The notes: a model not told the origin generated them from the letters alone. A stretch of 64,000 nucleotides of DNA from a virus (IMGVR_UViG_3300012352_000355:1-64000), one strand, 5' to 3'. Counted from the first letter of the stretch, positions 7,465 through 38,394 are shown. Program-made: numbers and translations.

Positions 7465-7539
7465 TGGTAGCCCCTGAGTGAATCGAACACATCTTTAACA
7501 GGATGAAATCCTGCTGTCCTACCAATAGACGAAAGGGCC
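7465..7539 (-). tRNA. tRNA-Glu(TTC), slightly non-canonical
   Basis: GGCCCTT/AGGGGCT acceptor + ACCA, GTCTATTGGTAGGAC D-arm, GCAGG-ATTTCAT-CCTGT anticodon arm, GTTCGATT T-loop with a bulged T-stem. Confidence 0.8.
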
Positions 7540-18313: not shown

Positions 18314-18356
18314 AATACAGATTATAAACATTGTTGGATAGTGAAAACAATAAAAA

Positions 18357-21300: not shown

Positions 21301-24071
21301 TTTATACTCCAAGATTATTTTCTGTTAATGGTAGTTTTTATACTACGGCAGCAGGGAGTGTAGGTATCGGAACTAGCAGCCCTAGTACTAAACTTGAAGT
21401 TGTAGGTAACTTTAGGTTAAATACCTACATGATGATGAATGCCAATTCTACTAATATGGGAATTATTGGATTCAATAGGAATGTAGACAATGGCGGAATA
21501 TTCAATTCATCCTACGGAGGTTATCAATTACAAAACTATATTGGGGAATTCCAACTTCAAGTATATAATAGTGCTGGAGCTCCCGTAACCATACATAGAT
21601 TACATAGCAATGGTAACGTATTATGGATGGGTAATGTTGGAGTATCAGTTTTAACTCCAACAGCATCCCTATCTTTAGGTGCTTCCTCTTATGATAGCAA
21701 TCCATTAACGGGACTACAATACTCCCAGGTAAGCGGAGGAGGTAGATTAGATCTAAAGGTACAAACTTGGGGTTCTACTTCTGATTATGGTTTAACTACT
21801 GGTCTTACTGTGGTTACTCCAGGATTTGATACAAATAATGTACGTGTAGGTATTGGTACTGTAAGTCCAGGATATAAACTTGAAGTAAATGGAAGTGTTG
21901 GAGGTTCTCCTGTTAATATAGCTAGATTTACATCGGGAGGAGCTGGTGGAGGGACAAGAGGACTTACTATGTATTCTGACGGTTCTCAACTTAAACTGCA
22001 GGTAAGTGATAATGTAGGAGGAATTGGAACTTGGGCATTCTTAAACTTAAACCCAGATGGAGGTAATGTTGGTATTGGTACTACTAGTCCAACTTCTAAA
22101 CTATTTATTCGAGGAAATGGTACATATAATACATCTACGAGTGAAATTTTAGCATCTGATGTAACTATATTCTCATCAGAGATGAGTAATGATGCTTATA
22201 ACTCTATACTGCAACTTGTTTCTGTACGACAGTCTTTAAGTACAGGAAATGCTTCTAATGGATTTTTAGGATTTTCAACATTAGATGACTCAAACGCACA
22301 AGGCGTACGGGATGCAGGAAGGATAGCTATTGTAAACGAAGTTGGTACTTCAAGAAACTCTGCAACTGCTTTAAGTTTTTGGACAAATGCTGGAGGTACA
22401 AATACAACAGCGGCTATAGAAAAAATGCGTATCACCTCTGGTGGAAACGTAGGTATAGGAACAACTGGTCCTGGTTCTAAATTGTCTATTTTAGGAAATA
22501 ATGATGTATTGAATGTTACATCTCAGACTGGAGATACATCATTGCCTACTAAGATGCTTGCACAATATGTAGGCTTATTTAACAATGGATCTAATGGACA
22601 CCATCTATATATTAATTCTTCTCAGGAATTAGGTTCACCCGAATTTAATATTACAAAAACTTGGGGAGGTTATTTGACCTTTGGGGTTTCTGGAGATGGA
22701 ACAGCAAGAACAAGAGCACTTTATATTAATAATAATGGTTATGTAGGTGTCAATGTAAACCCTATTTCTGGCGATAGATTTGAAGTTGCTGGCTCAGTTA
22801 GAATACACACAGGTAATAACTGGGATGCAATTCAGATTTATAGTGATGGTGCAAACGGATATATCCAAGGTCTTGGTGATGAGACAGGCTTAAGAATCCG
22901 TTCTGAGGCTGGAAATATATTACTTGCAGATAATAGAGGTAATGTAGGTATTGGAGTAACAAGTCCTCAAAAGAAACTTGATGTTTTTGGAAGTGCTGGA
23001 ATTATTGCTTCTATTGGAGCTACCATCAGTCCAGGACAATTTGCAGGATTACATTTTGGTTATAGTGAGTCTTATGTAAACAACGACAGTTATAAAAAAT
23101 CTGCCTTAGTATTTGAAAGAACAGACAATCATGGGCAAGGAGGAAATGCTTCAGGTAGAATTCATTTCTTACTTAATAATATAGCATCAGGTTCAGCAAC
23201 GTCTCTTTCACATTCTGTAATGGTTATTGATACTGACTCGGCAGCAACACAAGGTTCTGCTAGAGTAGGTATCGGTACTACTTCGCCTTCTACCACTTTA
23301 ACAGTTAATGGAATTATCACAGCAACTGGAGGAAATAGCACCAACTGGAATACCGCTTATTCATGGGGCAACCATGCTTCTGCTGGTTACGCTACTACAT
23401 CTTATGTAACTACTCAAATCAATAACTTAATTGCAGGGGCACCAGGAGCACTAGATACACTAGACGAATTGGCTGCTGCATTAGGAGATGATTCAAACTT
23501 TGCTACTACAGTAACTAATAGTCTTGCAGGTAAGGTATCTAAGTCTGGTGATACCATGACAGGTAATCTCCAAGTCAATGCTAAAGTAGGAACTTTGGAT
23601 AACCAGGGGATATACTTAAGAGGCATTGGAGACGCAACACACAAGATTTATTATAGAACTTCAGACGGAGGTAATGTTTGGGAATATAATAGCCCAATAA
23701 AGTTTGAGTACTACAATGGTGGAAATCCACTTACTAGATTAACCCTTGATATAGCTGGCAATCTAACTATAGGTGGATTCCTTACAGAATCTTCTTCACT
23801 TAAACTAAAAGAAAATGTAGAAACAAGTGAGGGAAATTTGGAAAAGGTAGTAAATTTGAGACCAGTCACTTATAATAAAATTGGGTCTGAAACTAAAGAA
23901 TTAGGACTTATTGCAGAAGAAGTTGCTGAAGTCTACCCAGAGTTTGTACAATATGATGAGAACGGAGAACCTATAGGGGTTAACTACTCACGCTTAACGG
24001 CTGCTCTTATTGGTGCAGTAAAAGAATTAACTAATCAAGTTCAAGAATTAAACAAAAAGATAAATGGCTAA
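18357..24071 (+). CDS. long tail fibre with C-terminal intramolecular chaperone (peptidase S74-like)
   Basis: About 13 GxVGIGTxxP repeats; two APxALDTLxELAAALGDD motifs; SSLKLKENV..LRPVTY..GLIAEEV..VNYSRL + coiled coil. Confidence 0.9.
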   Translation: MANEFKVKNGLIVIGDLTTSGTITINGALAATQSWVTSQAYLTSASLSGYATQSYVTSAIAALIDSAPAALDTLNELAAALGDDANFSTTITTAIGNKVSKSGDTMTGNLSFGATSNLGLTWGLNTDAAFIKFVSTGNQAGGSYLEIGTQDDLDEEIKFTQSGSLRFYLATDGFLKNGSGYKYVFENGTWGINISGNASTATTFSTTRSNYKGVTDGAVAGQLMWKNYGNGHTIFDASQGTSPDGGSINNTNSAAAWSATYPTLMGWNGSQTYGVRVDSARIADSATTAGTAGALTSMNISQFTNNSGYFGPGSYSWTSPVFGQYGIKSNLIDNVLYSAADRFEVFRDGVAWNTNTPFNLNYDSTADIIPVNTSRTYSIVLNTKGNGSSGITYTEGNVYLSFYYVQIPASVSGRVKDQSGTWRNINNWTNVANSGSYAVWRGNVPTFNYMVEIEITINSGSSVATWFSQWEYVMGRPGQYELGIINKAQDNSLWRNMYFRDSSNNSQVSIGPGGISTGQNLNISGTSGLNFNSYGGGFYMQDSSWIRTVNYKSIWTQSGLLGTDGGLTVGYGGATPPTGGAIISGNVGIGTGSPTQKLHVDGGKGFVRTSSSSWGQFAVVNPVDNEVGLTWAAEGTGYPGIDSTYTRQWIAGLNPFGTGMDRWSLTNKTLGSNTAITVLVGGNIGIGTTNPGTKLHVAGNAWINRPSNKVDNASCTELPSRVEFNNSFASGQSGYMIFRYPTYNNFLISGDYDGNVGGAIPNIQFGRQSTVHFHMNSSNGNIGIGTTSPSVKLDIIGSIRSEIGSDGNFVTLQATGQRVHYIKRSGQILQFTSDGANTYDVRFDSSNGSAYFATGNVGIGTTNPETKLHVAGGKITLKGGSSTDQQIVFNYAREYVNGIYNSSGHFRLQDNSLGGTVYQWDGSTFAFPNGNIGIGTTSPTGKLDIVPVAQNAINISRAGGYASLYSSNDLVFETDSVFYFGVYTPRLFSVNGSFYTTAAGSVGIGTSSPSTKLEVVGNFRLNTYMMMNANSTNMGIIGFNRNVDNGGIFNSSYGGYQLQNYIGEFQLQVYNSAGAPVTIHRLHSNGNVLWMGNVGVSVLTPTASLSLGASSYDSNPLTGLQYSQVSGGGRLDLKVQTWGSTSDYGLTTGLTVVTPGFDTNNVRVGIGTVSPGYKLEVNGSVGGSPVNIARFTSGGAGGGTRGLTMYSDGSQLKLQVSDNVGGIGTWAFLNLNPDGGNVGIGTTSPTSKLFIRGNGTYNTSTSEILASDVTIFSSEMSNDAYNSILQLVSVRQSLSTGNASNGFLGFSTLDDSNAQGVRDAGRIAIVNEVGTSRNSATALSFWTNAGGTNTTAAIEKMRITSGGNVGIGTTGPGSKLSILGNNDVLNVTSQTGDTSLPTKMLAQYVGLFNNGSNGHHLYINSSQELGSPEFNITKTWGGYLTFGVSGDGTARTRALYINNNGYVGVNVNPISGDRFEVAGSVRIHTGNNWDAIQIYSDGANGYIQGLGDETGLRIRSEAGNILLADNRGNVGIGVTSPQKKLDVFGSAGIIASIGATISPGQFAGLHFGYSESYVNNDSYKKSALVFERTDNHGQGGNASGRIHFLLNNIASGSATSLSHSVMVIDTDSAATQGSARVGIGTTSPSTTLTVNGIITATGGNSTNWNTAYSWGNHASAGYATTSYVTTQINNLIAGAPGALDTLDELAAALGDDSNFATTVTNSLAGKVSKSGDTMTGNLQVNAKVGTLDNQGIYLRGIGDATHKIYYRTSDGGNVWEYNSPIKFEYYNGGNPLTRLTLDIAGNLTIGGFLTESSSLKLKENVETSEGNLEKVVNLRPVTYNKIGSETKELGLIAEEVAEVYPEFVQYDENGEPIGVNYSRLTAALIGAVKELTNQVQELNKKING

Positions 24072-27000
24072 TTTATTATCCAATACCACAGTAGGCGGAA
24101 GTGCCGTAATCACAACAAGTAATATTGGGAGTTATGCTTTAACTAGTATTACCTCTGGTAATGTAACAACAGCTCTAGGATACACTCCCTATAATGCTAC
24201 TAATCCTTCAGGGTATATTAGTAGTATAACAAGTGGTAATGTTACAACTGCTTTGGGGTACACACCTTACAATGCTACCAATCCTAGTGGATACATTACT
24301 TCCTCTGCTTTAAGTTCTTATTTACCTCTAACTGGAGGAGCACTTACAGGTGGTTTGTATATAAACAATGCAGACCCAACTATTTTCTTACAAGATACAA
24401 ATCACAGATCTGCGATGATTCACGTTAACAGTAATGTGTTTTATGTATTGCGTGGTACAGGAACTAACTCTACAGGGTGGTCTACTTATAATGGGTACTG
24501 GCCTTTAGAAATTAATTTAGAAAATAATAACGCTCAATTTGGCGGAAGTGTATCAGCACCTGTTGGAGATTTTAGGGCTCCAATATTTTACGATTCTCAG
24601 AATACTAGCTATTATTTAGATCCTAATAGCACAAGTAATTTAAACGTAGTAAATTTAAGTACTTTAAATGCTAGTGATACTAACGCAAGATATTATTACC
24701 AAGGTACAAACGGTGTTCCATCAAATAACTTAGGTAATCCTACAGTTACAGAGATGGCTTTGTTTGATGAGCAGTTTAACAATAAAACTGCTTTTTACAA
24801 TCCTGCTTCTTTAACTTTTTGGACATCTTCTGATGGAACTAATTACACAGAATATACAGGATTTGATACTACTACTAAGAAGAGATTCTTAGGAGGAGAT
24901 AACGATTCAGGAGTATTTATTCCTAATCTTACAAATAGATTTAGAATTGAACTTGAGAATAGTGCAGGATATGTATTCTTAAATCAACTTTACATTTATT
25001 GGAGTTCTAACTCCCATAGTACAAAAGTACATATCTGGGTAAGACGTTGCGATAACAATCAGTGGTATCAGTGGACAAACAGCAATACACAAGTATCTTC
25101 TTGGCCTGGTCACCTTTACTTACCTTTTGGTGGTATTCCTTTTTACCCTGGCTATTTAGACTCTACTGGTCACTATAATAGAATCCGTATTGAGTTTATT
25201 CCTTCTTGGGCTAGTGGAACATATTCTTACACTAATATCAGTCTCATGCGTATGCAGATATGGGGTGGATACCCTGCAGGTAAGCGTAATATCTATAGCA
25301 CTGACGAGAATCAGAACGTAACATTCCCTGCTAGTATTACTTCTGGTAACAGTGTTATATCTACTAATTATCAAGCAACAAACGCTTACTACTTAAATGG
25401 TACTTCATATTTCTTAAACTCAACTAACGGAGGTATTTATACTAACGCCAGATTTGAAACAGCTGGTAACTTGGTAGTAGGAGGAACTACTTTCTTGGGT
25501 AACGCCAATGGGGACGAAGTTCATATCAATGATGTTTTGAGATTAGGAGCAACTGATTCAGGTGATGCACACTTCTTCTTTGGTGAGGGTAGTTCTGCAG
25601 GTTCTGATTATGGTTCGCACTGGTATTGGGACTCAGGTTACACCTTTACTTGGAATACAAGAAACAATGGTACAGACACTGCTTTATTTGACTATGTAAC
25701 AAACGATACTACATATCTTAACTGGAGACGTCACTTCCATATGCAGAATCGTGAAATTAACTATGTTAGTCAACTTCACTTTAATTCAGGTACTAGGTTT
25801 GTTAATTACAATAGTAATTACTTATACTTTCAGGCAGGATCTGCTTCTGAAGGAGCGATTATTGTGAGAGACGCTAACACTAGCGTAAGAGGATATAGTG
25901 GATATTTTGATAGCAATGGATTTGGTCTTCTTAATTCTAGTGGAGGTTGGGGTATAAGATTAAATCCAGGAAGTGCAGGTACTCTTTTGTACTTTGCAGG
26001 TTCTGAAAGACTAAGAACAGATAGTTCTGGTGCATATATAACAGGTCGCTTAGATGTATCTTCTTATGTCTATACTCCTGGAGCAATTATAGCAAGTAAT
26101 ATTCAAGGTGGTTACCAAGTATTAAGCCTTGATACAATTAAGAATCCTGGTCTTTATCAATACGATGGAGGTATTGGAGGTACACAACCTTTAGGAGCAG
26201 AATGGTCTAATGTTAAAACGATTGAAATAGGTTCTGGTGGTAGGTATAGTCAGTTTGTAATGCCTTATGCTAACAGTAGAATATTCTATCGTATTCATCT
26301 TAATGATGCTTGGCAATCCTATGTGGAATTGATTACTTCTGGTAACATTGGGTCTCAGAGCGTTAACTATGCCACTACAGCAGGAGCATTAACCTCAATG
26401 AACATTTCTCAGTTCACAAATAACTCTGGATATATTACATCTGGAGATACAACAACAGGAATATTTACTACTTACCTAGGAAATGGAACTAGTAATATTA
26501 GCAGTGGTTACACCAGAGTAATCAGGAATGAAAATGGCGCAGGAGGTAATCCTACTTATGCGCCTATCTTACACGTGGCTGCTTCTGATACCATGTGGCA
26601 AATAGCAGGGGCTCATGCTGGTGGGACTACTTTAGTTTGGAGGTCTGGATATTCTGGAGCATGGAATACTCCTTGGTGGACTATTTATCATAGTGGTAAT
26701 TTTACAGATAATTCTTCTAATTGGAATACGGCTTACGGATGGGGAAATCATGCTAGCGCAGGTTATGCTTCTACTTCAGCTTCTTACGCCAATCCAGTTT
26801 GGATTACTTCTTTAGCTTATTCTAAATTAACTGGTGTTCCAGCATTCTTAACTGCTGAGTCCGATACCTTAGCCACCGTAACTGGAAGAGGTGCTACTAC
26901 TACAAATAACATTACAGTAGGTACCCTAAGTACAAGTAAAACAGCAGGAAATACGTTAATTCAAGGATTTAATGCTACTGAAAGTTCTTTTTCCTATAAG

Positions 27001-28239
27001 ATTTACAATAATGGAAGTAGTACTCTTAGTTCAGCAGTATTTACTCAGTCCTTAGATTACTCAGGAACTACAAATGGATATATAAGTTTTACTAGAGGAG
27101 GAGGGGGATCAGATGGATTCTTGATATTTGGAGATAATGGTGGCGAGAGAATGAGATTGGCTTATGGCGGTAACTTAGGTATTGGAACAACTTCCCCAGG
27201 AAGTTATAGACTATACGTAAACGGAGGTCAATATGGAACAATGTTAAGAGGAGGTGATTTAGGAACAGGTAGTGATGTAGTTAGGATGATAAAATCAGAC
27301 AATTCTGTTGCGATGCTTGTAAGAGGGGACGGCAATGTAGGTATAGGAACAACTAGTCCTGGAGCAAAATTAGATGTTAATGGTACTGTTAGTGTAGCAT
27401 CTAGTTTTAATGGATTAGGATATGGTTCATTTGGTAGAACAGTTGATGGATCATATAGACTTATAGTAGCAGGAACTGACGCAACTTCTGGTTCTTATGG
27501 ATTATCTATTACAGATAGTAATGGTATACAAAACTTATGGGTAAGAAATGATGGAGTTACTTACTTAAGAGGAAACGTAGGTATTGGGACTACTAGTCCT
27601 GGATCTAAGCTACACGTAAATGGTGATGTAAAGATTGGAACTTATCTATATTTAGGTTCTGAAGGATCTGGATCTGTATTGGGAGATATTTCAACAGGAA
27701 ACTACTTGAGATTCTTAGTGTCTAATGGTGAGAGAATGCGTATTAATGCATCTGGCAGCGTAGGTATAGGTACTACTACACCTACGGCTCCAGTAGATGC
27801 ATTCGGGGTTAGGATCGGTAGAAACTTCTCTATAACAGATAGAGCTACAGTTAGACTTGATTCTAATACTTCTGCTTACCCAGCTGATATTCTATTTGGG
27901 CACACTAGTGCAGCTAACCAAAGTGCTTGGGATGGAGTATACTGGTCTCTATCTTCAAGGGCAGCAAATGATAATAACAACTTCTACATATATAGAGGAG
28001 GAGGTAATCCAGGTGGAAGTGGAGAGTCAGTTGTTATGGCATTACAACCCAACGGTAATGTAGGAGTGGGAACTACAACTCCTGCAGAAAAACTGGATGT
28101 AAATGGAAGCATTAATGCAACTGGATACAAAGTAAATGGAGTAGCAGGATATACTGGAATGGTTACTATACAACAAGCTCCTCCAATGCCTCCAGTTACT
28201 TTTGATATTCAGAATGGTATAATTGTTAACGTCCTATAA
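24064..28239 (+). CDS. long tail fibre protein
   Basis: GNVGIGTT repeats, RAPIFYDS motif, modules shared with neighbouring fibres. Confidence 0.85.
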   Translation: MANLLSNTTVGGSAVITTSNIGSYALTSITSGNVTTALGYTPYNATNPSGYISSITSGNVTTALGYTPYNATNPSGYITSSALSSYLPLTGGALTGGLYINNADPTIFLQDTNHRSAMIHVNSNVFYVLRGTGTNSTGWSTYNGYWPLEINLENNNAQFGGSVSAPVGDFRAPIFYDSQNTSYYLDPNSTSNLNVVNLSTLNASDTNARYYYQGTNGVPSNNLGNPTVTEMALFDEQFNNKTAFYNPASLTFWTSSDGTNYTEYTGFDTTTKKRFLGGDNDSGVFIPNLTNRFRIELENSAGYVFLNQLYIYWSSNSHSTKVHIWVRRCDNNQWYQWTNSNTQVSSWPGHLYLPFGGIPFYPGYLDSTGHYNRIRIEFIPSWASGTYSYTNISLMRMQIWGGYPAGKRNIYSTDENQNVTFPASITSGNSVISTNYQATNAYYLNGTSYFLNSTNGGIYTNARFETAGNLVVGGTTFLGNANGDEVHINDVLRLGATDSGDAHFFFGEGSSAGSDYGSHWYWDSGYTFTWNTRNNGTDTALFDYVTNDTTYLNWRRHFHMQNREINYVSQLHFNSGTRFVNYNSNYLYFQAGSASEGAIIVRDANTSVRGYSGYFDSNGFGLLNSSGGWGIRLNPGSAGTLLYFAGSERLRTDSSGAYITGRLDVSSYVYTPGAIIASNIQGGYQVLSLDTIKNPGLYQYDGGIGGTQPLGAEWSNVKTIEIGSGGRYSQFVMPYANSRIFYRIHLNDAWQSYVELITSGNIGSQSVNYATTAGALTSMNISQFTNNSGYITSGDTTTGIFTTYLGNGTSNISSGYTRVIRNENGAGGNPTYAPILHVAASDTMWQIAGAHAGGTTLVWRSGYSGAWNTPWWTIYHSGNFTDNSSNWNTAYGWGNHASAGYASTSASYANPVWITSLAYSKLTGVPAFLTAESDTLATVTGRGATTTNNITVGTLSTSKTAGNTLIQGFNATESSFSYKIYNNGSSTLSSAVFTQSLDYSGTTNGYISFTRGGGGSDGFLIFGDNGGERMRLAYGGNLGIGTTSPGSYRLYVNGGQYGTMLRGGDLGTGSDVVRMIKSDNSVAMLVRGDGNVGIGTTSPGAKLDVNGTVSVASSFNGLGYGSFGRTVDGSYRLIVAGTDATSGSYGLSITDSNGIQNLWVRNDGVTYLRGNVGIGTTSPGSKLHVNGDVKIGTYLYLGSEGSGSVLGDISTGNYLRFLVSNGERMRINASGSVGIGTTTPTAPVDAFGVRIGRNFSITDRATVRLDSNTSAYPADILFGHTSAANQSAWDGVYWSLSSRAANDNNNFYIYRGGGNPGGSGESVVMALQPNGNVGVGTTTPAEKLDVNGSINATGYKVNGVAGYTGMVTIQQAPPMPPVTFDIQNGIIVNVL
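24145..24300 (+). repeat. tandem 26-aa repeat in tail fibre
   Basis: SITSGNVTTALGYTPYNATNPSGYI x2, protein-identical but synonymously diverged DNA. Confidence 0.85.
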
Positions 28240-29185: not shown

Positions 29186-29203
29186 TTGAACCTTAGTTCT
29201 AAG

Positions 29204-29233
29204 AAAACCCTCAGAGAAATCTGGGGGTTTTTT
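29204..29233 (+). terminator. intrinsic terminator
   Basis: AAAACCCTCAGA-GAAA-TCTGGGGGTTTTTT. Confidence 0.75.
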
Positions 29234-29734: not shown

Positions 29735-30322
29735 ATGAGCTACACAAGAGAACAAATCGAAGCGGCTATGAAAGCCAAAGGTTATAAGTACTTTGAGAAT
29801 GGAGACTTCAACGTAAACATTATCGGTGTACGTAACTCTGCTACTGGTACTAAAGTAACTAATGTATTTGATGATCACTTAACTATTTCTTACAAAGAAG
29901 GTGGTGAGTGGAAATTTAAAATTTGGCCTGCTACTACAGATCCAGGAACTAAGGGTGTTAAAGAATTCCATAACGCTGCAGGTGTTGCACGTTTGGTACC
30001 TGGTCAATACTCAGGTTCACACCATGTAGGATTGCACCAAGGTAAGTACGAAGCCCTTAAGCAAAAGGCTAATGTTAAAGTTTACCGTGATGCTAACAAA
30101 GACATGAACTATGACGAGTCCAAGATACAAGAAGGCATCTTCGGTATTAATATTCATAAAGCTGGTGCAGACTCTACCTACGTTGAAAACTGGAGCGAAG
30201 GTTGCCAAGTGTTCAAGAAGTCTGCTGACTTCGATGCATTCATGGTTATCTGTAAGAAGGCTGCGGCATTGGGTGGTAACTCTTTCACTTATACTCTTAT
30301 TGAATCTAAAGATATCAAGTAA
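29735..30322 (+). CDS. endolysin, L,D-transpeptidase-like catalytic fold
   Basis: NIIGVRN, ATTDPG, GINIH...WSEGCQ (His/Cys dyad). Confidence 0.75.
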   Translation: MSYTREQIEAAMKAKGYKYFENGDFNVNIIGVRNSATGTKVTNVFDDHLTISYKEGGEWKFKIWPATTDPGTKGVKEFHNAAGVARLVPGQYSGSHHVGLHQGKYEALKQKANVKVYRDANKDMNYDESKIQEGIFGINIHKAGADSTYVENWSEGCQVFKKSADFDAFMVICKKAAALGGNSFTYTLIESKDIK

Positions 30323-30793
30323 ATGAAAGGACTTCTAGTAAGTCTTTTTCTAATTCTCTCTATCCCCTGTTCTTCTCAAATCAATGTGATGAAGGCAGGG
30401 GATGGTTGGGATTTAAAGGTAGACTCGGCCTTAGCATTAATTGCTCAAACTGATGTCAACGCTTATACTAGAGTAATAGATGTCTGCCAAGTAATAGACT
30501 TCTGGATTAGTCCCTATTCCTCTAATACAATCTCCCAAGATGGTGGAACTATATTTATCGCTACAGGAGACATAAAAACGAATTCACTCAATAACCTAGC
30601 TTGTGTTATTGTACATGAAAGTCTTCACTTATACTACTTGTTACATCCAGTAGAACAGTCACAGGACGAAGAAGAACTTAAGTGTTATATCTACGAGTTA
30701 GACTTTATAAAAAAACTACCAACCCCAGAGCCTTGGTTACAGGCAAATGCAATTGAACAATTACATAAATTAACTAAAACAAAAACAAAATGA
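30323..30793 (+). CDS. secreted zincin-like (HExxH) protein
   Basis: Signal peptide ..CSS|Q; VIVHESLH followed by EE..CY..E. Confidence 0.7.
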   Translation: MKGLLVSLFLILSIPCSSQINVMKAGDGWDLKVDSALALIAQTDVNAYTRVIDVCQVIDFWISPYSSNTISQDGGTIFIATGDIKTNSLNNLACVIVHESLHLYYLLHPVEQSQDEEELKCYIYELDFIKKLPTPEPWLQANAIEQLHKLTKTKTK

Positions 30794-32688
30794 ATAAACT
30801 ATTTAAAGTAATCATCGGGGTGTTGACATTGTTGGTTGGCAATGCATCAGCACAATCTTCTGCCACCTCTCCAGGTACAGGTCACTGGGTTGTAATTGAC
30901 TCAGGTTATCAAGTAGCTACAAACACTGTAGGACAGACTGTAGCGCCTCTTCACTTCTACAATACCTCTACTTCTGAAAAGATCACAGGTATGCAGTTCC
31001 GTGTATTCTACGATAAGACAGCTTTTACAGCAGTTGTTCCTTCTCTTAAAATCTCTTCTACTGATCAATACTTGCAGTACGTAGATAGTAACACACAAGG
31101 TTTCTTAACTGTTACATTGGCTTACACTGGATCTAGCTCAACATTTAACTATTCTAACGGAGCTACATTTGATCTTACCTTCACGCACGCAGGTGCTGCT
31201 GTATGGAACACATTGGATTCTATTAAAACTCTTAAGGTATCAGGTGTTAAATCATTTGCAAACAAAGCTGCTACTAGCTGGGGTAACGATACTACATTGG
31301 TAGTTTACTCTTATGGTGGTCGCTTCAATCAGAAGGTATTGAGATTTGCTGCTAAGTTTAAAAACGTAACAGGTTCTGACGCTAAGAACTTGTGGGTGTC
31401 TTTGGAAAAGAAAGCTCCTTCAGGATCTTGGACTCAAGTAGAAGCTAAAGCAACTAACTCTAGTGGTGTTGTTGTATTCCGTAAATTCTTGGATACTACT
31501 TACTGGGATGTACGTATGGTTGTTAAGGGAGATACTATGACTCCTGGTAATGTATTCTCTACTGCAGATGCACAGAAGATTAATCAATCTATCTTAGGTC
31601 AATATGTTGCTTCAGGATTTGACTACTACACTATGGACGTAAACGGAACTGATGGAACTATTTCTATTGCCGATGTTTACTCTGTATACGGACGTTTGGC
31701 AGGTAGATTCTCTGCATGGCCTAATTCTAAGAAGGATGTAATGTTCTTTACAGTTGCTGAGTACAATTCAATTAACGGATCTGCTACCAACTTAACTTCT
31801 ACTTACTCTACTATTAATAACTTTAACTACACAATTGACGGTCAAGATTCTATCACTTACTACGTAGCTGTTAAAGGTGATGCTAACTCTACAGGATTTA
31901 AGATGGCTCGTTTGACTCCTATCAAAATTGTTAATCCAGCTAACGCTAAACGTTACATCATTGACGAGACTGTAGAATACGACTTCCCTGCAGAAACTAT
32001 AGAGATCAATATGCCTAAAGTAACTGTAGATGAAGGTAACTTAGTTAACGTACCAGTTAAAGTATTGACTAACGGAAAGAACTTAGGTGCACTACAATTA
32101 GACTTGCGTTATGACACTGCTTACTTAGAGTTTAAGAAAGTAGAAAACACTGAGAAGATGATGAAGTGGACTTCTTACTTGAACCCTTCTAACGGAATCA
32201 TCTCTTGGGGAGCTGCTGATTTGACTAACGAGAACATGCTTAATGACGGAGAGCAAGTATTCACTCTTCAATTCATTGCTAAGAAGCCACAAGACTCTTG
32301 GGCTACTGCAGCTTTGTGGACAGGTGCTAAATACGTAGGAGACAAAAACTCTAAAGACATGAACATTACCCCTGCTATGGGAGTAATTGAAGTACGTAGA
32401 ATCAACAAAGGAGTTGTTTCACTTAATGATTTGAATTCTATTATCACTTTTCCTAACCCTACAGAAGGTCCAGTACAAATCCAATTCAAGATCAAAGAAG
32501 ATAGTGAAGTAGACGTAGCTATCTCTGATGAGGTAGGAAGACGTGTACAAACGATTCTAAGCGAAAGAATGCCTGCAGGTAAGTACAAGTATAATACAAA
32601 CCTAGATCGTCTTCCTAATGGCTTCTATGTGCTTTCTGTAACAACTCAAAAAGAAATCTTACACTCCAAAATAATCGTACAAAAATGA
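30790..32688 (+). CDS. secreted cohesin/dockerin-like protein with T9SS C-terminal sorting domain
   Basis: SP ..ASA|Q; two cohesin-like domains (GMQFRVFYDK; VNVPVKV..GALQLDLRYDTAYLEF); DVNGTDGTISIAD dockerin-like loop; FPNP...G+Y...LPNGFYVL...KIIVQK CTD. Confidence 0.85.
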   Translation: MNKLFKVIIGVLTLLVGNASAQSSATSPGTGHWVVIDSGYQVATNTVGQTVAPLHFYNTSTSEKITGMQFRVFYDKTAFTAVVPSLKISSTDQYLQYVDSNTQGFLTVTLAYTGSSSTFNYSNGATFDLTFTHAGAAVWNTLDSIKTLKVSGVKSFANKAATSWGNDTTLVVYSYGGRFNQKVLRFAAKFKNVTGSDAKNLWVSLEKKAPSGSWTQVEAKATNSSGVVVFRKFLDTTYWDVRMVVKGDTMTPGNVFSTADAQKINQSILGQYVASGFDYYTMDVNGTDGTISIADVYSVYGRLAGRFSAWPNSKKDVMFFTVAEYNSINGSATNLTSTYSTINNFNYTIDGQDSITYYVAVKGDANSTGFKMARLTPIKIVNPANAKRYIIDETVEYDFPAETIEINMPKVTVDEGNLVNVPVKVLTNGKNLGALQLDLRYDTAYLEFKKVENTEKMMKWTSYLNPSNGIISWGAADLTNENMLNDGEQVFTLQFIAKKPQDSWATAALWTGAKYVGDKNSKDMNITPAMGVIEVRRINKGVVSLNDLNSIITFPNPTEGPVQIQFKIKEDSEVDVAISDEVGRRVQTILSERMPAGKYKYNTNLDRLPNGFYVLSVTTQKEILHSKIIVQK

Positions 32689-33035
32689 ACATTAAAAAAG
32701 CACTTGGTTTTAGCCAAGCAGAACCAGTAGTAGTAGATCCTAAGAATAGGTTCTATTATATGCTACAACAAATGCAAGCCAATCGTTGGAAAATTACAGC
32801 TATCGTATTGGGCTTGTTTACTCTAATCATTGTCGGAATCAACGCAGCAGTATTCATGGGAGCTGCTATTGGTGAAGACTGGAAAGAAATGTTGCTTATC
32901 CTTTTAGGTGCATTTGTAGGTAATCTGAACAAAGTAGTAGACTACTGGTTTAACTCAGAAGATCGTGACAAGATGTTGATCCAAAAAGTGGATGAGGAAG
33001 ACGGTGAATCATTATCAAACACAACTAATCCATAA
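32685..33035 (+). CDS. two-TM membrane protein
   Basis: Two TMs, LLGAFVGNLNKVVDYWF. Confidence 0.75.
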   Translation: MNIKKALGFSQAEPVVVDPKNRFYYMLQQMQANRWKITAIVLGLFTLIIVGINAAVFMGAAIGEDWKEMLLILLGAFVGNLNKVVDYWFNSEDRDKMLIQKVDEEDGESLSNTTNP

Positions 33036-33039
33036 TATC

Positions 33040-33360
33040 ATGTCAGAAGAACAAGAAGAAAGCGTAATGTCGGCTACTAAGAAAGCTATCATTGGCGCAG
33101 TCACCACTGCTGTAACTGCAGGAGGTGCATGGTTCGCTACTCACTTTGGTGGTGGCGAAGAACCTAAAGAAGAAGCTAAAACAGAACAGAGTGCTGCTCC
33201 TGTTATTAACTTGAATCTAGAGAACAACAACACTAACCAGCAGAAACAATCTTCAGGTGGAACTACTACTATCATCAAAGAAAGAACAGTAGAGAAACCT
33301 GCAGCTCAACCTGCTGCTCCTGCAACCAAACCACAAGAGGAGGAATCTGATCCATGGTAA
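33040..33360 (+). CDS. membrane-anchored low-complexity protein
   Basis: Start MSEEQ at 33040; AIIGAVTTAVTAGGAWF TM; Q/P/E-rich tail ending DPW. Confidence 0.75.
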   Translation: MSEEQEESVMSATKKAIIGAVTTAVTAGGAWFATHFGGGEEPKEEAKTEQSAAPVINLNLENNNTNQQKQSSGGTTTIIKERTVEKPAAQPAAPATKPQEEESDPW

Positions 33361-33950
33361 AAACCTGTAATATATGTTTTGTAGAAAAGACTTTAGATGA
33401 TTTTTATAAATCTAAGTCTGGTAGAGACGGTCTGGAGTCTTTTTGTAAATTATGCAAAAGAGAGAAGTCTAGGAAAACTTATTTAGACAACAGAGAATAT
33501 AGACTACTACAAAGCAAATCATATTACTACTCTAATCACGAAAAACAAAAGGAAGTAAAAAGTAATTGGAAGAAGAATAATCCAGACTTAAACCGAGCAA
33601 TTAATAATGCCTGGGAAAGAAATAAGAGGAAGGAAGATAAATTCTGGGCTTGTAAAAAGGCACTAAGAACAAGATTTCTAGGAGCTTTGTCTGGAAGGGT
33701 GAAATCCGACTCTACTCTAAAACTAGTGGGACTACCTTCTTGGGACACATTAAAATTCTATCTGGAAACTCTTTGGTCTGAAAATATGTGTTGGAGTAAC
33801 TATGGTTATGGCGAAGGATGTTGGGTAATAGATCATATTATCCCACTAGCCTCTGCTTCTAGTTTAGAGGAATTGGAAAAACTTCAACACTATACTAACT
33901 TACAGCCTTTGTGGTGGAGGGATAATTTAATAAAAGGAACAAGTATATGA
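33354..33950 (+). mobile_element. HNH homing endonuclease-like gene
   Basis: CxxC..CxxC N-terminus, WVIDHIIPL, HYTNLQPLW..DNLIK; overlaps both neighbours. Confidence 0.85.
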
Positions 33951-34651
33951 AGACAGTAAAAAAATGGTTTAACAAGTTCATGGCTCTTGTAGTCTTGACC
34001 TTGGCAGGTTGTGGTTCTATGAAGACTACTACCGAAGAAGATAAAGTGGAGGTGAAAGACATCTCCACTGTATCTAATTATAGTGATTCTATTAAAAAAA
34101 CAGTACAAGTGGTAAGCGTAGATATGACCAAGGTACTTGCTCTTTATCCTGCTCTTCAGGAAAAGAACGTAGGTCTTGGATTTGCAGAATCTGTTTTGGA
34201 TTATTTGGATGAAACAAACAGATTTATATTTACGGAAGAAAAATCAGAGATCAAAGAAAGAATGGTCACTCAATTCAAAGCATCAAAGAAAGGCGTATTC
34301 GATGAACCAATTGATGGGAAAGGTAAGATTAAGCCTGCTCACTACTTTGTGTATGTTACTGTGGCTGATTTTGCTGTTGATGAAGACGAGCAAGTTGATG
34401 GCCTTAAGTCAAAAGTTGTTGTCACTACCTTCATACGTTTACAAGTTCGCTTTGTGGACGCTAAGACAGGTCAGATCTATATTGGATCTGGCGAAGGAGA
34501 GTCGACTAAGACTGGTGAATCATTCTTAAAATCTTTAGATGATATGAAGTTCTCTCAAAGCACAGTAGGTAAAGCTACACGTAAATCTTTGGAGACAGCT
34601 TGTACTAATGTGATTCAAAATCTCATTAAGTCAGGTGTATTTAAAAACTAA
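33947..34651 (+). CDS. CsgG-like (curli-channel/TolB-N fold) lipoprotein
   Basis: Lipobox LAGC; LGFAESVLDYLDETNRFIFTE, LQVRFVDAKTGQIYIGSGEG, KATRKSLETA pattern. Confidence 0.75.
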   Translation: MKTVKKWFNKFMALVVLTLAGCGSMKTTTEEDKVEVKDISTVSNYSDSIKKTVQVVSVDMTKVLALYPALQEKNVGLGFAESVLDYLDETNRFIFTEEKSEIKERMVTQFKASKKGVFDEPIDGKGKIKPAHYFVYVTVADFAVDEDEQVDGLKSKVVVTTFIRLQVRFVDAKTGQIYIGSGEGESTKTGESFLKSLDDMKFSQSTVGKATRKSLETACTNVIQNLIKSGVFKN

Positions 34652-36119
34652 AATACTAATACTATTTATGATAGCTCTGTCTCTTCGGGGGCAGAGCTTT
34701 ATTTATTCGTACACAGATCCTTGTACTCAGGAGTTAAAGTTTATTAACGCAGACATGTCTAGTCCTATAGTAATTGCTTACTATGGACAGGTTAAGACTT
34801 TCTCCTACACAGAGTTACAAGATGGTACGTTTGATAATTGGATAAATAGTGTATATTTGAAGTATCAAAGTACATCACCCTGTCAAGGAGTTGGAGTAAC
34901 AACTACTACAACTACAACAACGAATACTACCCTAAACATTGTAAGCAATGTTATGAACCTAGGGGCTATTTCAAATGTTGGTAGTGTAAATGTAGATGTA
35001 GGCTCTAGCACCTCTTCAGGAACAAACATAGGAACAACAAAAACCAATAATAACAATGACAATCGAACTAGCTCTCGGAATCGTACTAGCAGTAGCTCTA
35101 GTCGTTCTGGTTCTTCTGGCAGCTCGTCAGGAGAAGGTGGACAATCAAGTGGTGGAGGAAACTCCTCAGAGACCCCAGGAACCTCAAGTGGAAACTCTCC
35201 AGACCCCAATCCAGGAAGCAGCGGAGAAGGTAATGGAGGAAGCAGTGGCTCCAGCTCCAGTTCCAGCTCCAGTAGTAGTGGAGGAAACTCCAGTGGTAGT
35301 GGAAGTAGTGGAAGTAGTAGCGGAAGCTCCCAAGGTGGAGGCGGAAGTGGTGGTAAAACCGAAGAAAAAACGGAAGTACAAACCGAGGAACCCACAGAAC
35401 AAAAAGTAGAGGAAACTAAAACTGAGACTCAAAAATCTCAGTCTTCTGGTACTGCAAAAGCTGCAGGAAAAGCTAAAGCCGAAGTTGCTAAGCCTGCGAT
35501 CTTAGTAACTGGTGATTTAGTTGGTATTCAGACTAAGTCTGATGGAGCACAAGATGCAAGAGGTACTGCCTCTTTTACTAGAGTAAAGGGAGACGGTACT
35601 TCTTCTCTTGGGTTTTCAGCCGACTACATGGTTAACGCTAGGATAGGAAATATCTCTTGCGTACGCTCTTGGATAGGAGCAAACAAAAAAGGAAACAAAC
35701 ACATTAGTGTTGTATCTGATGGACTTAGCATAATGCCTAAGTCAATGTCAAACACTCTTCTATTTGTAAGAGTTAATTCAGTTAAAAACTTTACAGCTCT
35801 CTACGGAGCAGCGGGAACTTACGGTAAACTATTTGGAGAAGAAATGATTTCTACTATTGCTATCGGAGGTTTTATGTACAAAGGTAAACTTACTAAAAGT
35901 ATAGATGCTACAATTATTGCAGCTGGTATCTACTCTCCGTACTCTAAGTATTACACAGAATCTATATTTGAGGCTAAGCCTATTGTGATTCCTTTCTTTA
36001 ACTTTACATACAGAATGACCAAGACTTTTGGCTTAGGTATTACTGGAGGAGGAACATATGTAGCAGGACAGGATATATTAAACTTTCAACTATTGATGGG
36101 AGCTAAGTTATTAATATGA
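34635..36119 (+). CDS. secreted protein with Ser/Gly linker and beta-rich (outer-membrane barrel-like) C-domain
   Basis: GTG start, SP ..LRG|Q; T/S/G-rich linker; amphipathic strands in the last ~200 aa. Confidence 0.75.
   Translation: MYLKTKILILFMIALSLRGQSFIYSYTDPCTQELKFINADMSSPIVIAYYGQVKTFSYTELQDGTFDNWINSVYLKYQSTSPCQGVGVTTTTTTTTNTTLNIVSNVMNLGAISNVGSVNVDVGSSTSSGTNIGTTKTNNNNDNRTSSRNRTSSSSSRSGSSGSSSGEGGQSSGGGNSSETPGTSSGNSPDPNPGSSGEGNGGSSGSSSSSSSSSSGGNSSGSGSSGSSSGSSQGGGGSGGKTEEKTEVQTEEPTEQKVEETKTETQKSQSSGTAKAAGKAKAEVAKPAILVTGDLVGIQTKSDGAQDARGTASFTRVKGDGTSSLGFSADYMVNARIGNISCVRSWIGANKKGNKHISVVSDGLSIMPKSMSNTLLFVRVNSVKNFTALYGAAGTYGKLFGEEMISTIAIGGFMYKGKLTKSIDATIIAAGIYSPYSKYYTESIFEAKPIVIPFFNFTYRMTKTFGLGITGGGTYVAGQDILNFQLLMGAKLLI
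35056..35409 (+). CDS. nested +1-frame membrane protein
   Basis: ATG after A-rich leader; TM, E/V/P-rich stalk, KPKKKRKYKP tail; same architecture as 340-564. Confidence 0.6.
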   Translation: MTIELALGIVLAVALVVLVLLAARQEKVDNQVVEETPQRPQEPQVETLQTPIQEAAEKVMEEAVAPAPVPAPVVVEETPVVVEVVEVVAEAPKVEAEVVVKPKKKRKYKPRNPQNKK

Positions 36120-37099
36120 GGTGGGTTATTGTTCTATTCTTCTTTGTGAACGCACTGAGTGCACAATTCACTTATTCTGGGTACTTGTATAATGCAAATG
36201 GATCTGGGGCCAACAACGTAGCTGTAAAGCTGTATAGAAGAACAAACTCTACTATATCAGGATTCACCTCTCAAAACAACTATAATGGACACTCTTACTA
36301 TCGTTCTACAGGAACAGCCAACTGGACTACAGCTAAGTCTAACTGTGCTGCTATGGGTGGGCACTTAGTAACTGTTACTAGTTCAGGAGAAAATAATTTT
36401 CTATTTAACTTGTGGCCCTCAGGATGGATAGGATTGACAGATGAAGTTACTGAGGGAACTTGGAAATGGGTTACAGGAGAGACTTACTCTTACTCAAACT
36501 GGAACTCTGGAGAACCCAATAACTCAGGTAACGAAGATTATATTCAGTTTGTAGGTAGTGGTAAATGGAACGACTTAAATAATAATAATAGCTTGGCTTA
36601 CGTAATTGAGTTTGATTACATAGTAACAACCTCTTCCTGGGCCCTTTACAAAACAATCTATACTAACTCTTCGGGTTACTATTCTATCTCTGAGACTTAC
36701 GATCCTTCTAAGGAGTACTATATACAGATAGATGCTCCTACTAGAATTCAATCCTACACTACTTCAGATATACAAGGAGTCTCCAATACTATACTAGGAA
36801 GAACTACCAGGAATGGTTTGTCTTTTCATATGTTTGATGTTAATGACGATGGAGTAATTTCTATAGCAGATAAGTATTATGTAGCTGCGAGGAAAGCTGG
36901 CTTATTCTCTAGATGGAGAACAGCTCCTGATGTAAGGATCTTTACTACTGCTCAATACAATTCAATTAAAGCAGCAACAACAAACGTAAGAGCAACTTAT
37001 CCTGGAGTCACTACTCATACAACTTCTACTTTAACTAGTGGAGGAACTTTAAATCTCTACATAATAGCTCCTGGTTATGCTGGAGCAGTAACTTACTAA
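36116..37099 (+). CDS. secreted C-type lectin / dockerin-like protein
   Basis: SP ..LSA|Q; CTL motifs GHSYY, C..GGHL, WIGLTD, EPN, WND; DVNDDGVISIAD loop. Confidence 0.88.
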   Translation: MRWVIVLFFFVNALSAQFTYSGYLYNANGSGANNVAVKLYRRTNSTISGFTSQNNYNGHSYYRSTGTANWTTAKSNCAAMGGHLVTVTSSGENNFLFNLWPSGWIGLTDEVTEGTWKWVTGETYSYSNWNSGEPNNSGNEDYIQFVGSGKWNDLNNNNSLAYVIEFDYIVTTSSWALYKTIYTNSSGYYSISETYDPSKEYYIQIDAPTRIQSYTTSDIQGVSNTILGRTTRNGLSFHMFDVNDDGVISIADKYYVAARKAGLFSRWRTAPDVRIFTTAQYNSIKAATTNVRATYPGVTTHTTSTLTSGGTLNLYIIAPGYAGAVTY

Positions 37100-37163
37100 A
37101 CCTATAGGTTGCCAAAACTGTTTTATTTTTATACTTTTGGCAGAATATAAATTATCCTAAAAC

Positions 37164-37610
37164 ATGAAAAAACTATTTATACTTTCCGCTTTAGTCACTA
37201 TGATGACTTCTCTGAGTGCTCAATGCTATAAAGTTGACACTGTAACATCAATTGCTTCTGTAACAGAAATAGGAGGAAGACCTATAATCTTTGGAGCACA
37301 AACAACTCTAGAAGAGATTGCCTCCTCAAAGTACCAATTATGTAATGAGGGCAGTCCTATTTCAGGAACAATCAAATCCATTGCTATGCCTGAAGAACTC
37401 TTAAATATCGTAGGGTTACAGTTTCTCAAGAGAGACTATATTGTAGTCACTGAGATAAACTTAAATGGAGTAACTGTTCTTGGAGAGGCTAAAAAGACTG
37501 TCTATGTTAATGCTATGTTTGTTTCTGTAGAAGGTATTCCTCATAACAGAAAAGCTTATTCTAAGGCATTGGAGAAGTCTTTCAAGAATGGGTTTGAGAA
37601 TTTGAAATAG
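37164..37610 (+). CDS. small secreted protein
   Basis: SP ..LSA|Q; own promoter TTG-N20-TACTTTTG at 37109-37139. Confidence 0.75.
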   Translation: MKKLFILSALVTMMTSLSAQCYKVDTVTSIASVTEIGGRPIIFGAQTTLEEIASSKYQLCNEGSPISGTIKSIAMPEELLNIVGLQFLKRDYIVVTEINLNGVTVLGEAKKTVYVNAMFVSVEGIPHNRKAYSKALEKSFKNGFENLK

Positions 37611-37659
37611 TTTTCTTTCCTTCTCATTCTGAGAAGTAGTCTATTTTGACTTTCTATTC

Positions 37660-37892
37660 TAACTTATATTGCAGCAGTTTTTAACCAAATAGCTCTCGGA
37701 GCTAAGTCTCTGTTCTGTCCACTTATTGCCTACGGTCTATTACTTGTAGGTCAGAGCACTGCAAACTTCATTAGAACATTTTGACACTATCGGAGAAACC
37801 TCTTTTCACCTCTGAGGGCTACTCATACTATCCAACTTCTAGCAGATTACTTTTTAATCCTCGTCTGCGAACATTAAGAAATGGTGTCGGGG
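37660..37892 (-). ncRNA. putative structured RNA
   Basis: Minus-strand TATCTTTG at 37896-37903; helices GACAC/GTGTC, GATTA/TAATC, CTCTG/CAGAG, CCTAC/GTAGG, TAGCTC/GAGCTA; no ORF. Confidence 0.45.
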
Positions 37893-37964
37893 GATCAAAG
37901 ATAAAGCGACTTACGTGTAAGTAGATGTCTCTGTGGAAAATTTGTGAAATAAAAGACAGCTAGA

Positions 37965-38237
37965 CTAGAGTCCAGCTACATCCTGAGCATGCATGTAGTC
38001 TGTCTGCTGCATAGGTTGATCATCTCCTAGAATAGATTCTAGAGCATAGTCAATATAATCGAAGAGCATTTCTTCTGTGTACTTCTTTCTATAGGTAAAA
38101 TCTTTGAATCCTTGATAAAGGGCATCCTTGAATCCACCTATGTCTCCTGCTATTTTGACCTCTTCATCCTGTAAGGCTAAAAGGAAGAACTCGAATACTT
38201 CTTCTGAGGTCGGCTTTTTAACTTTTTCCATCGACAT
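37965..38237 (-). CDS. small acidic protein
   Basis: Lone minus-strand gene with its own TATATTTG promoter (38256-38263); ATG at 38237 or 38231. Confidence 0.7.
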   Translation of the reverse strand: MSMEKVKKPTSEEVFEFFLLALQDEEVKIAGDIGGFKDALYQGFKDFTYRKKYTEEMLFDYIDYALESILGDDQPMQQTDYMHAQDVAGL

Positions 38238-38394
38238 AGCAGTAATTGTTTGATACAAATATAGGTTTAAATAAAGTTTTGTCTATAGTGTTTATCTAAT
38301 TCCCTGAGACATCTAAAATAATTATCTAGGTTACAAATTGAGTTAACACGTGTAACATTTGATATTAATTACTGGTTTAGACTTAACATTTAAC

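Follow-up and report, generated by a model that had tools for sequence, protein, structure and literature searches.

What use has a bacteriophage for a set of exported, surface-directed proteins encoded directly behind its holin and endolysin? The question is raised by an IMG/VR virus record (IMGVR_UViG_3300012352_000355; 111,405 bp, with an estimated completeness of 94%), of which the first 64 kb were analysed and are referred to here as the window. Positions 30323–37610 contain eight tightly packed envelope-directed genes, all on the plus strand, which we refer to as the cassette (Table 1). We propose, as a tentative reading that falls a little short of an even chance, that a cohesin scaffold exported by the host type IX secretion system (T9SS) displays swappable glycan-binding heads, re-dressing the envelope of the infected Bacteroidota cell. 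A preliminary description of this DNA, made from the sequence alone, had listed these genes as a tightly coupled run after the holin and endolysin genes and had suggested a lectin-displaying complex on the infected cell; all of the listed genes are indeed present on the plus strand with abutting or overlapping junctions, and all of their products are envelope-directed.

A putatively exported scaffold, its exchangeable heads and their neighbours

The 632-aa scaffold protein combines cohesin modules with a T9SS sorting tag. Pfam Cohesin matches the whole protein with an E value of 1e-15 (58.6 bits summed over two stretches), above the curated cut-off, and the first of its two modules, which by itself scores just below threshold, is the most conserved domain of the scaffold (mean pairwise distance 0.153). 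The C-terminal domain (CTD) is of T9SS type A: it scores above the cut-off, lies at the extreme C-terminus, and is accompanied by a Sec signal peptide (MNKLF...NASA↓Q). Divergent scaffolds (24–30% identical, including those of loci L094 and L116) still exceed the Cohesin and Por_Secre_tail cut-offs and keep the architecture. The signal peptide, the two cohesin-like domains and the T9SS CTD that the preliminary description assigned to this protein are thus all recovered, one of the cohesins at 23.6 bits against a threshold of 24.1.

Five of the cassette products have signal peptidase I (SPI)-type signal peptides, each ending before a glutamine (SS↓Q, SA↓Q, RG↓Q, SA↓Q and SA↓Q), and a sixth carries a lipobox. 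Exposure of Gln at position +1 is a property of Bacteroidota signal peptides known as the Q-rule (PMC5837995), and because of the T9SS tag and the five Q-rule signal peptides we infer that the host is a T9SS-bearing member of the Bacteroidota; the virus is probably a crAss-like phage with hosts of the Flavobacterium type.

The scaffold and the head protein share a module. A 162-aa stretch of the scaffold, containing the beta-sandwich and a dockerin-like loop and helix, is related to the 327-aa head protein (31% identity, E 2e-18), with the loop reading DVNGTDGTISIAD in the scaffold and DVNDDGVISIAD in the lectin protein. When a profile of the dockerin-like segment is compared with the PDB the two best matches are dockerin chains, 2y3n_B (8.4e-5) and 4fl4_A (2.4e-4), both from solved cohesin–dockerin complexes. 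A further clue comes from the cultured Flavobacterium phage Immuto (described below), in which the scaffold is divided between two genes of 363 and 243 aa, one an adaptor with cohesin 1 and the dockerin-like module, the other an anchor with cohesin 2 and the CTD; this two-gene layout requires non-covalent docking. A complex prediction for cohesin 2 with the mature lectin protein, run without controls, gave an ipSAE of 0.00 against a mark of 0.32, a result that counts neither for nor against binding.

The head protein is a C-type lectin set within a beta-sandwich, as the preliminary description had recognised (Lectin_C, E 1e-16). Its EPN motif (aa 133–135 of the full-length protein) and WND motif are invariant across 25 lectin homologues and are the mannose-type calcium- and sugar-site motifs of C-type lectins; the canonical disulfide pairs of C-type lectin-like domains are absent, there being a single Cys in the whole 327-aa protein. 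The lectin is one of several heads found on the same base. Among 61 loci the head is a C-type lectin in 30, a 400-aa type of unknown kind in 20, GEVED in ten and PA14 in one, and all four types share a signal peptide, the start of the sandwich and the dockerin-like base. A further PA14 head (E 5e-11, with a weak GLEYA match) is present in the divergent locus L116. Such swapping among lectin-type domains is in keeping with a role in binding or display. Diversity-generating retroelements are also known to target the C-type lectin fold.

Pairwise-distance-matrix correlations among the cassette domains, aimed at matching a cohesin to the dockerin-like module of the lectin, resolve two linkage blocks. 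Cohesin 1 and the scaffold dockerin region vary together (r 0.88), and a second block unites the lipoprotein, barrel and small protein with cohesin 2 and the CTD of the scaffold (r 0.63–0.86). The lectin base is nearly independent of both (r 0.19–0.41) and recombines freely, and therefore no cohesin partner could be named for it. Taken with the head types, this is what a conserved platform with a replaceable binding tip would show.

The 234-aa lipoprotein is the best-conserved cassette gene product (mean pairwise distance 0.108). The window protein itself has no Pfam CsgG (PF03783) match at E <= 0.1, and 17 of 40 diverse relatives match that family (best 1.9e-25); the family profile also finds E. 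coli CsgG in the PDB (1.3e-5). An AlphaFold 2 (AF2) model with a predicted local distance difference test score (pLDDT) of 82.7 confirms the CsgG fold: the top Foldseek match is CsgG (E 3e-7), and VIA-align gives Z scores of 13.4–14.5 over 169–197 residues for CsgG chains, with root-mean-square deviations of 3.5–4.8 A in seven of the eight listed and 7.7 A for the membrane-bound 4uv3_A. The next fold matches (LptE, PelC and other lipoproteins) have Z scores of about 9–12, PelC standing at 9.7. Anchoring of this protein varies by lineage: the window type has a lipobox, the Immuto homologue an SPI-type signal (ASA↓Q), and members of a third group begin with a hydrophobic stretch that resembles an anchor (MRTR.DEI...); the loci compared were L094:7929-8669, L101:7971-8711, L110:7932-8672 and L001:11055-11768.

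The 494-aa protein encoded next has no Pfam match. Its N-domain (75 aa, two Cys) has a QSFxYxYxDPC start that is kept even in distant relatives, and is followed by a disordered low-complexity stalk of ~180 aa rich in Ser, Gly, Thr, Glu and Lys. The C-terminal domain (aa 288–492, ~205 aa; nt 35496–36110) is modelled by AF2 as a barrel (pLDDT 77.8; 12 strands by DSSP), and the helix preceding it has a pLDDT below 50. The 50 best structural matches are all generic outer-membrane barrels and no family stands out (Z scores: CymA 17.1, OmpG 16.5, PgaA 14.6, PelB 14.4, AIDA-I 12.1, EstA 11.7; FapF is also matched), in agreement with the earlier suggestion of a secreted, beta-barrel-like protein. A 117-aa open reading frame (ORF) in another frame (35056–35409, plus strand) spans the Ser/Gly-rich linker, and divergent loci have comparable ORFs at the equivalent position (L094 9086-9574 and L101 9146-9529, for example); these may simply reflect low-complexity codon repeats.

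The remaining products are less easily placed. In a scan of PHROGs no family was found for any cassette protein, and the HNH gene lying within the cassette alone was matched; the 116-aa protein with two transmembrane (TM) segments has no Pfam, NCBIfam or PHROG family. The single-pass protein that follows it has an invariant C-terminal (E/D)(E/D)xPW motif, here called the DPW tail, and its gene is always directly upstream of the CsgG-fold gene. The 156-aa secreted protein has HESxH, KAGDGWD and PEPWL motifs that are invariant over 12 homologues and is a putative mini-zincin; it has no significant Pfam, NCBIfam or PDB match, with motif-level hints only (SprT-like, Tox-MPTase2), and it is an accessory member of the cassette, missing from part of the loci. 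The 148-aa protein has no PDB sequence match, and a profile comparison with the CsgG-like family gave no link (probability 6.5%). Its relatives are in viral clusters only (Atlas, all unnamed), with Lipoprotein_16 and DUF4410 as weak leads.

The genes named in the preliminary description are real, but its list omitted the HNH gene, and the start of what it called a TM stalk is probably 33040 (MSEE...) rather than 32992. Because only one of 80 related loci (L054) carries the HNH gene, we regard it as a mobile insert outside the cassette; it looks like a homing-endonuclease insertion.

Table 1. Features of the holin–endolysin–cassette unit in the window
Feature	Coordinates	Strand	Remarks
Terminator-like hairpin, strong	29202–29233	+	14-bp stem and T run; ends tail-fibre block; the holin–endolysin–cassette unit begins 3' of it
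Holin-like membrane protein, 82 aa	29456–29704	+	context gene; kept beside lysin or cassette in related loci
Endolysin, 195 aa	29735–30322	+	context gene; phrog_3000 E 9e-39, phrog_33083 endolysin E 6e-14; stop abuts first cassette gene
Secreted protein with invariant HESxH, 156 aa	30323–30793	+	signal peptide ...CSS↓Q
Scaffold, 632 aa	30790–32688	+	signal peptide, cohesin-like 1, beta-sandwich, dockerin-like loop, X region, cohesin 2, T9SS type-A CTD
Cohesin-like domain 1 of scaffold (aa 44–154)	30919–31251	+	Pfam Cohesin E 6.4e-5, 23.6 bits (cut-off 24.1)
Dockerin-like segment of scaffold	31522–31725	+	helix, then DVNGTDGTISIAD loop and helix
Cohesin domain 2 of scaffold (aa 405–534)	32002–32391	+	Pfam Cohesin PF00963, best stretch, model positions 2–138 of 139
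T9SS type-A CTD of scaffold (aa 554–630)	32449–32679	+	PF18962 (Por_Secre_tail) 38.1 bits (cut-off 27); TIGR04183 32.1 (cut-off 23)
Inner-membrane protein, two TM segments, 116 aa	32685–33035	+	70–98% conserved
Single-pass membrane protein (DPW tail), about 107 aa	33040–33360	+	acidic N-terminus, one TM segment, Pro/Ala/Glu/Lys-rich tail
HNH / endonuclease VII-like gene, 198 aa	33354–33950	+	phrog_1035 E 5e-22; between DPW-tail and CsgG-fold genes
CsgG-fold lipoprotein, 234 aa	33947–34651	+	lipobox LAG↓C
Stalked barrel protein, 494 aa	34635–36119	+	signal peptide, N-domain, linker, outer-membrane barrel
Head protein, 327 aa	36116–37099	+	C-type lectin within beta-sandwich, then dockerin-like segment, conserved tail
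C-type lectin domain of head (aa 68–163)	36317–36604	+	Lectin_C PF00059 E 1e-16, 62 bits (cut-off 22.6)
Dockerin-like segment of head	36722–36925	+	
Small secreted protein, 148 aa	37164–37610	+	last cassette gene, least conserved

Distribution of the cassette and its genome setting

Close relatives of the lipoprotein occur on at least 370 IMG/VR contigs, and 80 loci were fetched for comparison of gene order. Wherever the fetched stretch suffices, the order is constant: (HExxH)–scaffold–(2TM)–TM–lipoprotein–barrel–head–small protein. A second scan with divergent CsgG-like proteins (30–45% identical) identified 58 more viral loci, most of which keep the partners and their order. In many contigs, the largest of 176 kb, the cassette is 70–87% identical while the flanking sequence shows no detectable match to the 111-kb genome; conversely, sister phages that share the backbone of the window phage (terL 94% and endolysin 93–96% identical) lack the cassette. 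A DNA search also found it in a cultured Flavobacterium myophage from the Baltic Sea, vB_FspM_immuto (160 kb; host Flavobacterium sp. LMO8). In that phage, adjacent genes surrounded by others for replication and nucleotide metabolism encode the lectin (47% identical), the split scaffold, the TM protein, the CsgG-like protein (42%), the barrel protein and the small secreted protein; just two of these cassette genes are labelled in the GenBank record. Co-conservation across phages, on which the preliminary description had staked its proposal beforehand, is thus strongly borne out by the 370 and 58 viral contigs and Immuto.

A single pattern scan of cellular genomes with close-relative patterns (one genome per species, 185,579 prokaryote species) gave one match, L084 (RFPL01000028.1), a 16.5-kb contig in a 'Sphingomonadaceae' metagenome-assembled genome (MAG). 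It has holin, endolysin and cassette in the order of the window and 65–90% identical, and evidently comes from a Bacteroidota phage and was binned in error with an alphaproteobacterium. Because of the unrelated backbones, the cassette-less sisters and this lone phage-contig match, we regard the cassette, from these comparisons, as a conserved unit that is optional, horizontally mobile and so far phage-restricted.

In the window the terminase, portal and capsid proteins match those of crAss-like and Cellulophaga phi4:1-like phages, and the endolysin is 48–50% identical to proteins of Bacteroides crAss-like phages. The cassette sits between these terminase–portal–capsid genes and the tail-fibre genes, of which three giant ones occupy 13475–28239. 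From 29456 onwards there is a single uninterrupted plus-strand run of holin-like, endolysin and cassette genes, and successive stop and start codons abut or overlap at 30322/30323, 30790–30793, 32685–32688, 33354–33360, 33947–33950, 34635–34651 and 36116–36119. Promoter motifs add little: the Bacteroidota-type motif TTTG..TAnnTTTG occurs three times in the window against 2.06 expected, which is uninformative, and no enrichment of sigma-70-like sites was found in the window. The cassette is followed by a 750-bp gap (37611–38358) with weak hairpins at 37620–37636 and 37690–37704 and a single minus-strand 97-aa ORF (37965–38258) with its own terminator-like hairpin. Elsewhere in the window, a 1904-aa tail-fibre protein (18357–24071, plus strand) ends in a Peptidase_S74 domain (aa 1813–1864, E 1e-8), the self-cleaving intramolecular chaperone of endosialidase-type fibres, and the sole tRNA found is a tRNA-Glu (TTC) at 7465–7539 on the minus strand, within an early-looking minus-strand block.

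Proposed surface display and its alternatives

We suggest that the cassette works as follows. The host Sec pathway would export all of the products other than the two membrane proteins, and the host T9SS would then take the scaffold, by means of its CTD, onto or outside the outer membrane. There its cohesins would hold the head protein by its dockerin-like module, displaying an exchangeable sugar-binding head of the calcium type, with the CsgG-fold lipoprotein, the stalked 12-strand barrel and the DPW-tail protein as an outer-membrane platform or conduit for assembly. In this phage the cassette would be expressed late, together with the holin and endolysin of its run, and the infected cell and the envelope fragments left after lysis would become sticky for particular glycans in the manner of a flocculin, so that progeny are kept near new hosts or on particles. 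The carbohydrate-recognition domains of C-type lectins and the PA14 domains of flocculins both bind sugars in a calcium-dependent manner, and because EPN-type lectin sites and PA14 domains both occur as heads, adhesion or flocculation is, in our analysis, the most likely benefit.

Several observations weigh against this proposal. The dockerin assignment of the preliminary description stands in part only, since the loop and the PDB matches are there but the Dockerin_1 (PF00404) cut-off of 22.9 bits is never reached (13.4 in the window lectin, 17.0 in the head of L006 and 19.3 in the scaffold of L116), and in place of tandem calcium loop–helix repeats there is one canonical DxNxDGxIxxxD loop, the first repeat in the alignment keeping its helix (..D...i.n.iLG) without the loop. 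It is because of the sub-cut-off scores and the one loop that the module is called dockerin-like and not dockerin on its sequence, despite the PDB matches. The CsgG-like channel that was earlier proposed is likewise upheld for its fold and not for its function. The segments equivalent to the membrane hairpins are shorter than in E. coli CsgG (20 against 26 aa and 27 against 39 aa), the first of them reads AVDEDEQVDGLKSKVVVTTF and has a family median of 30% charged residues against 19% in E. coli; because these segments are shorter and more charged a channel role is not established, and the modelled lipoprotein may lack pore function. Head type does not co-vary with the nearest tail-fibre type (C-terminal part), and a display made together with lysis proteins would have little time on a living cell. 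Our confidence stays below even because the evidence stops at targeting, the head has no T9SS CTD to take it across the outer membrane, and for five of the eight proteins the roles that we offer are guesses.

The preliminary interpretation was sound as to domains, export signals and co-conservation, but it missed a repeated linkage to lysis genes, which fits a lysis-related job as well as it fits display. Apart from the terminator-bounded run that the abutting genes share with holin and endolysin in the window, the cassette is followed in other backbones, at a distance of no more than about 300 bp, by an endolysin gene from a different and unrelated family (phrog_181, E 1e-61 to 1e-69), so that two families of endolysin adjoin it, and some cassettes in other backbones are flanked by a holin-like gene. 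In the cassette-less sisters the same slot, directly after the endolysin gene, holds a 93-aa TM and coiled-coil gene and then a 141–146-aa secreted coiled-coil gene (L153:9588-10331, L151:9615-10315 and L152:9591-10317); these have no homologue in the 111-kb genome or the 80 cassette-bearing loci and no PHROG family, and by their sequences are candidate spanin-like genes of Bacteroidota phages. The cassette might then be an envelope device that opens or loosens the outer membrane after holin and endolysin have acted, or that sets the timing of lysis, its DPW-tail protein, CsgG-fold lipoprotein and barrel forming an envelope-spanning unit in place of the spanin-like genes of the sisters. We consider this unlikely, though the likeliest of the alternatives. 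The inner-membrane protein gene always lies just upstream of the outer-membrane lipoprotein gene, as in spanin pairs, and lysis timing has been proposed as a role for the CsgG/CsgF proteins of phage Melnitz (PMC9004378). The DPW-tail protein is, however, of low complexity and not coiled-coil, the lipoprotein at 234 aa is far larger than o-spanins, and its Immuto homologue has an SPI-type signal and no lipobox; on this anatomy a classic two-component spanin is rejected. Exclusion from the slot is also incomplete, as L120-type phages hold holin, cassette and a spA-like gene together, and no recognisable lysis genes adjoin the Immuto cassette among its replication and nucleotide-metabolism genes. 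It is hard to see what cohesins, a T9SS tag and exchangeable lectin heads would contribute to rupturing a membrane, and accessory genes commonly settle beside lysis genes, as is generally known from lambdoid phages. A bolder and improbable idea is that the eight proteins form one envelope-spanning machine linking surface contact to the co-transcribed lysis genes, in which the lectin heads, scaffold and stalked barrel would lie outside and the CsgG-fold lipoprotein would relay with the DPW-tail and two-TM proteins, the outcome being contact-dependent lysis timing (a burst near host-type glycans) or a spanin-independent opening of the outer membrane.

The same display anatomy could instead serve receptor masking, a reading that we think rather unlikely, in which the lectin binds glycans of the producing cell in cis, blocking superinfection and sparing progeny from debris; the phage T5 lipoprotein Llp, which masks FhuA, is the model. 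Head swapping resembles the turnover of receptor-recognition modules, late synthesis would suit the protection of progeny from debris, and the cassette is optional, like exclusion genes, but one cluster of fibres is accompanied by lectin, 400-aa or PA14 heads (a weak test, with three fibre genes), and masking has no need of a two-cohesin scaffold, a barrel or a CsgG-fold protein. A further reading is an export conduit, in which the CsgG-fold lipoprotein and the barrel would secrete unfolded protein or polymer to form a matrix, the small secreted protein and the Ser/Gly-rich stretch of the barrel protein being candidate cargo. CsgG chains are the best fold matches of the lipoprotein, those of the barrel include the polymer exporters PgaA and PelB as well as FapF, PelC, which as a lipoprotein ring serves the PelB barrel, is among the lipoprotein matches, and 'sibling capture' is an idea for pelagimyophage CsgG/CsgF quoted in PMC9004378. 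We nevertheless find a conduit very doubtful, as Pfam and NCBIfam scans of the cassette proteins gave no match to a CsgA, CsgB, CsgE or CsgF partner, the hairpin segments are short and charged, the barrel fits no particular family, and there is neither an amyloid-type repeat protein nor a polysaccharide synthase in the cassette. That the lectin and cohesin proteins decorate the phage particle is highly improbable. The position of the cassette between tail-fibre and terminase–portal–capsid genes would suit it, and virions are known to bear lectin folds and Ig-like domains (PMC9853417). Virions are assembled in the cytoplasm, however, whereas six products have a Sec signal peptide or lipobox, with a T9SS tag on one protein and an outer-membrane barrel in another; sister phages whose structural genes are the same have no cassette, in Immuto the cassette lies among replication genes, and the tail-fibre proteins show no cohesin or dockerin domain. 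Ordinary virion proteins are rejected on this anatomy, in line with the view taken in the preliminary description.

The cassette is common among aquatic Bacteroidota phages, occurring on hundreds of viral contigs and in several unrelated backbones, and the hosts of such phages recycle algal polysaccharides. Whether its effect is cell clumping, protection of progeny or a new route for opening the outer membrane, it should influence the spread of infection on particles and in blooms. The proposal is directly testable, as the cultured phage Immuto has a version of the cassette and the cassette-less sister phages are natural controls, and the cohesin and dockerin-like pairs together with the T9SS tag could serve as surface-display parts for Bacteroidota.

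Relation to known systems

The closest parallels to the scaffold are the cohesin–dockerin assemblies, cellulosome-type and non-cellulosomal, with which it shares a Pfam cohesin on a surface-tagged protein, a second cohesin-like module, and dockerin-like calcium-loop modules on the adaptor-like part and on the cargo; in Immuto the two-tier layout of cellulosomes is reproduced by separate genes for the anchor (cohesin and surface tag) and the adaptor (cohesin and dockerin-like module). Unlike the cellulosome, the cassette is phage-encoded and was not found in cellular genomes in the 185,579-species pattern scan, its anchor is a T9SS CTD and not an S-layer homology (SLH) domain or sortase signal, its cargo is a lectin-type binder and not an enzyme, and its dockerin-like module has one canonical loop and lies below the Pfam cut-off. 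T9SS type-A sorting domains have been reported on phage genes in Cryophage, one of them with PA14, and variable between variants (Bellas et al. 2020, PMC7468147); these genes, for enzymes or PA14 proteins, stand singly in flexible islands, and the description in PMC7468147 includes no cohesin–dockerin scaffold, CsgG-fold lipoprotein, barrel or fixed multi-gene order.

Among phage CsgG proteins, those of pelagimyophages and of the Methylophilales phage Melnitz, which encode CsgG/CsgF (PMC9004378, citing Zaragoza-Solas et al. 2020), are similar in being CsgG-family proteins of lytic aquatic phages without curlin genes, for which sibling capture and lysis timing are the guesses. They differ in having Proteobacteria as hosts and a CsgF, which the window cassette lacks, and the window gene, with its shortened hairpins, is embedded in a cassette of cohesin, T9SS, lectin and barrel genes. 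E. coli CsgG itself (type VIII secretion; PDB 4uv2/4uv3/6l7a) shares the fold, the lipobox and family-level homology, whereas the window protein misses Pfam CsgG, has equivalents of TM1 and TM2 that are shorter by 6 and 12 residues, respectively, and carry more charge, and is without csgA/B/E/F partner genes in the cassette. Spanins of the Rz/Rz1 type resemble the cassette in the placing of an inner-membrane gene just 5' of an outer-membrane lipoprotein gene near holin and endolysin, and differ in that the cassette has no coiled coil, a folded 234-aa CsgG-like lipoprotein, and six further genes with binding or display domains. A C-terminal 12-strand barrel is also found in the stalked barrels of type Va autotransporters and FapF, but the structural matches single out neither family, AIDA-I and EstA ranking below CymA, OmpG, PgaA and PelB. 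The heads, of the calcium-type sugar-binding kind and presumably held out on a stalk or scaffold, recall yeast flocculins (PA14/GLEYA) and C-type lectin adhesins, although the likeness is a functional analogy only, the carrier, anchoring and organism being unrelated.

A literature search, with most subscription journals outside its coverage, found no description of the multi-gene cassette or of any phage cohesin–dockerin system. Judged by their sequences, each of the modules belongs to or resembles a known family, and as a system the cassette appears, from its composition and conservation, to fit no described kind. Phages are known to alter the host surface with single genes, such as those for exclusion lipoproteins and O-antigen modifiers, and a conserved multi-protein set that borrows the host T9SS and cellulosome-style modules would differ from such single-gene changes of the surface.

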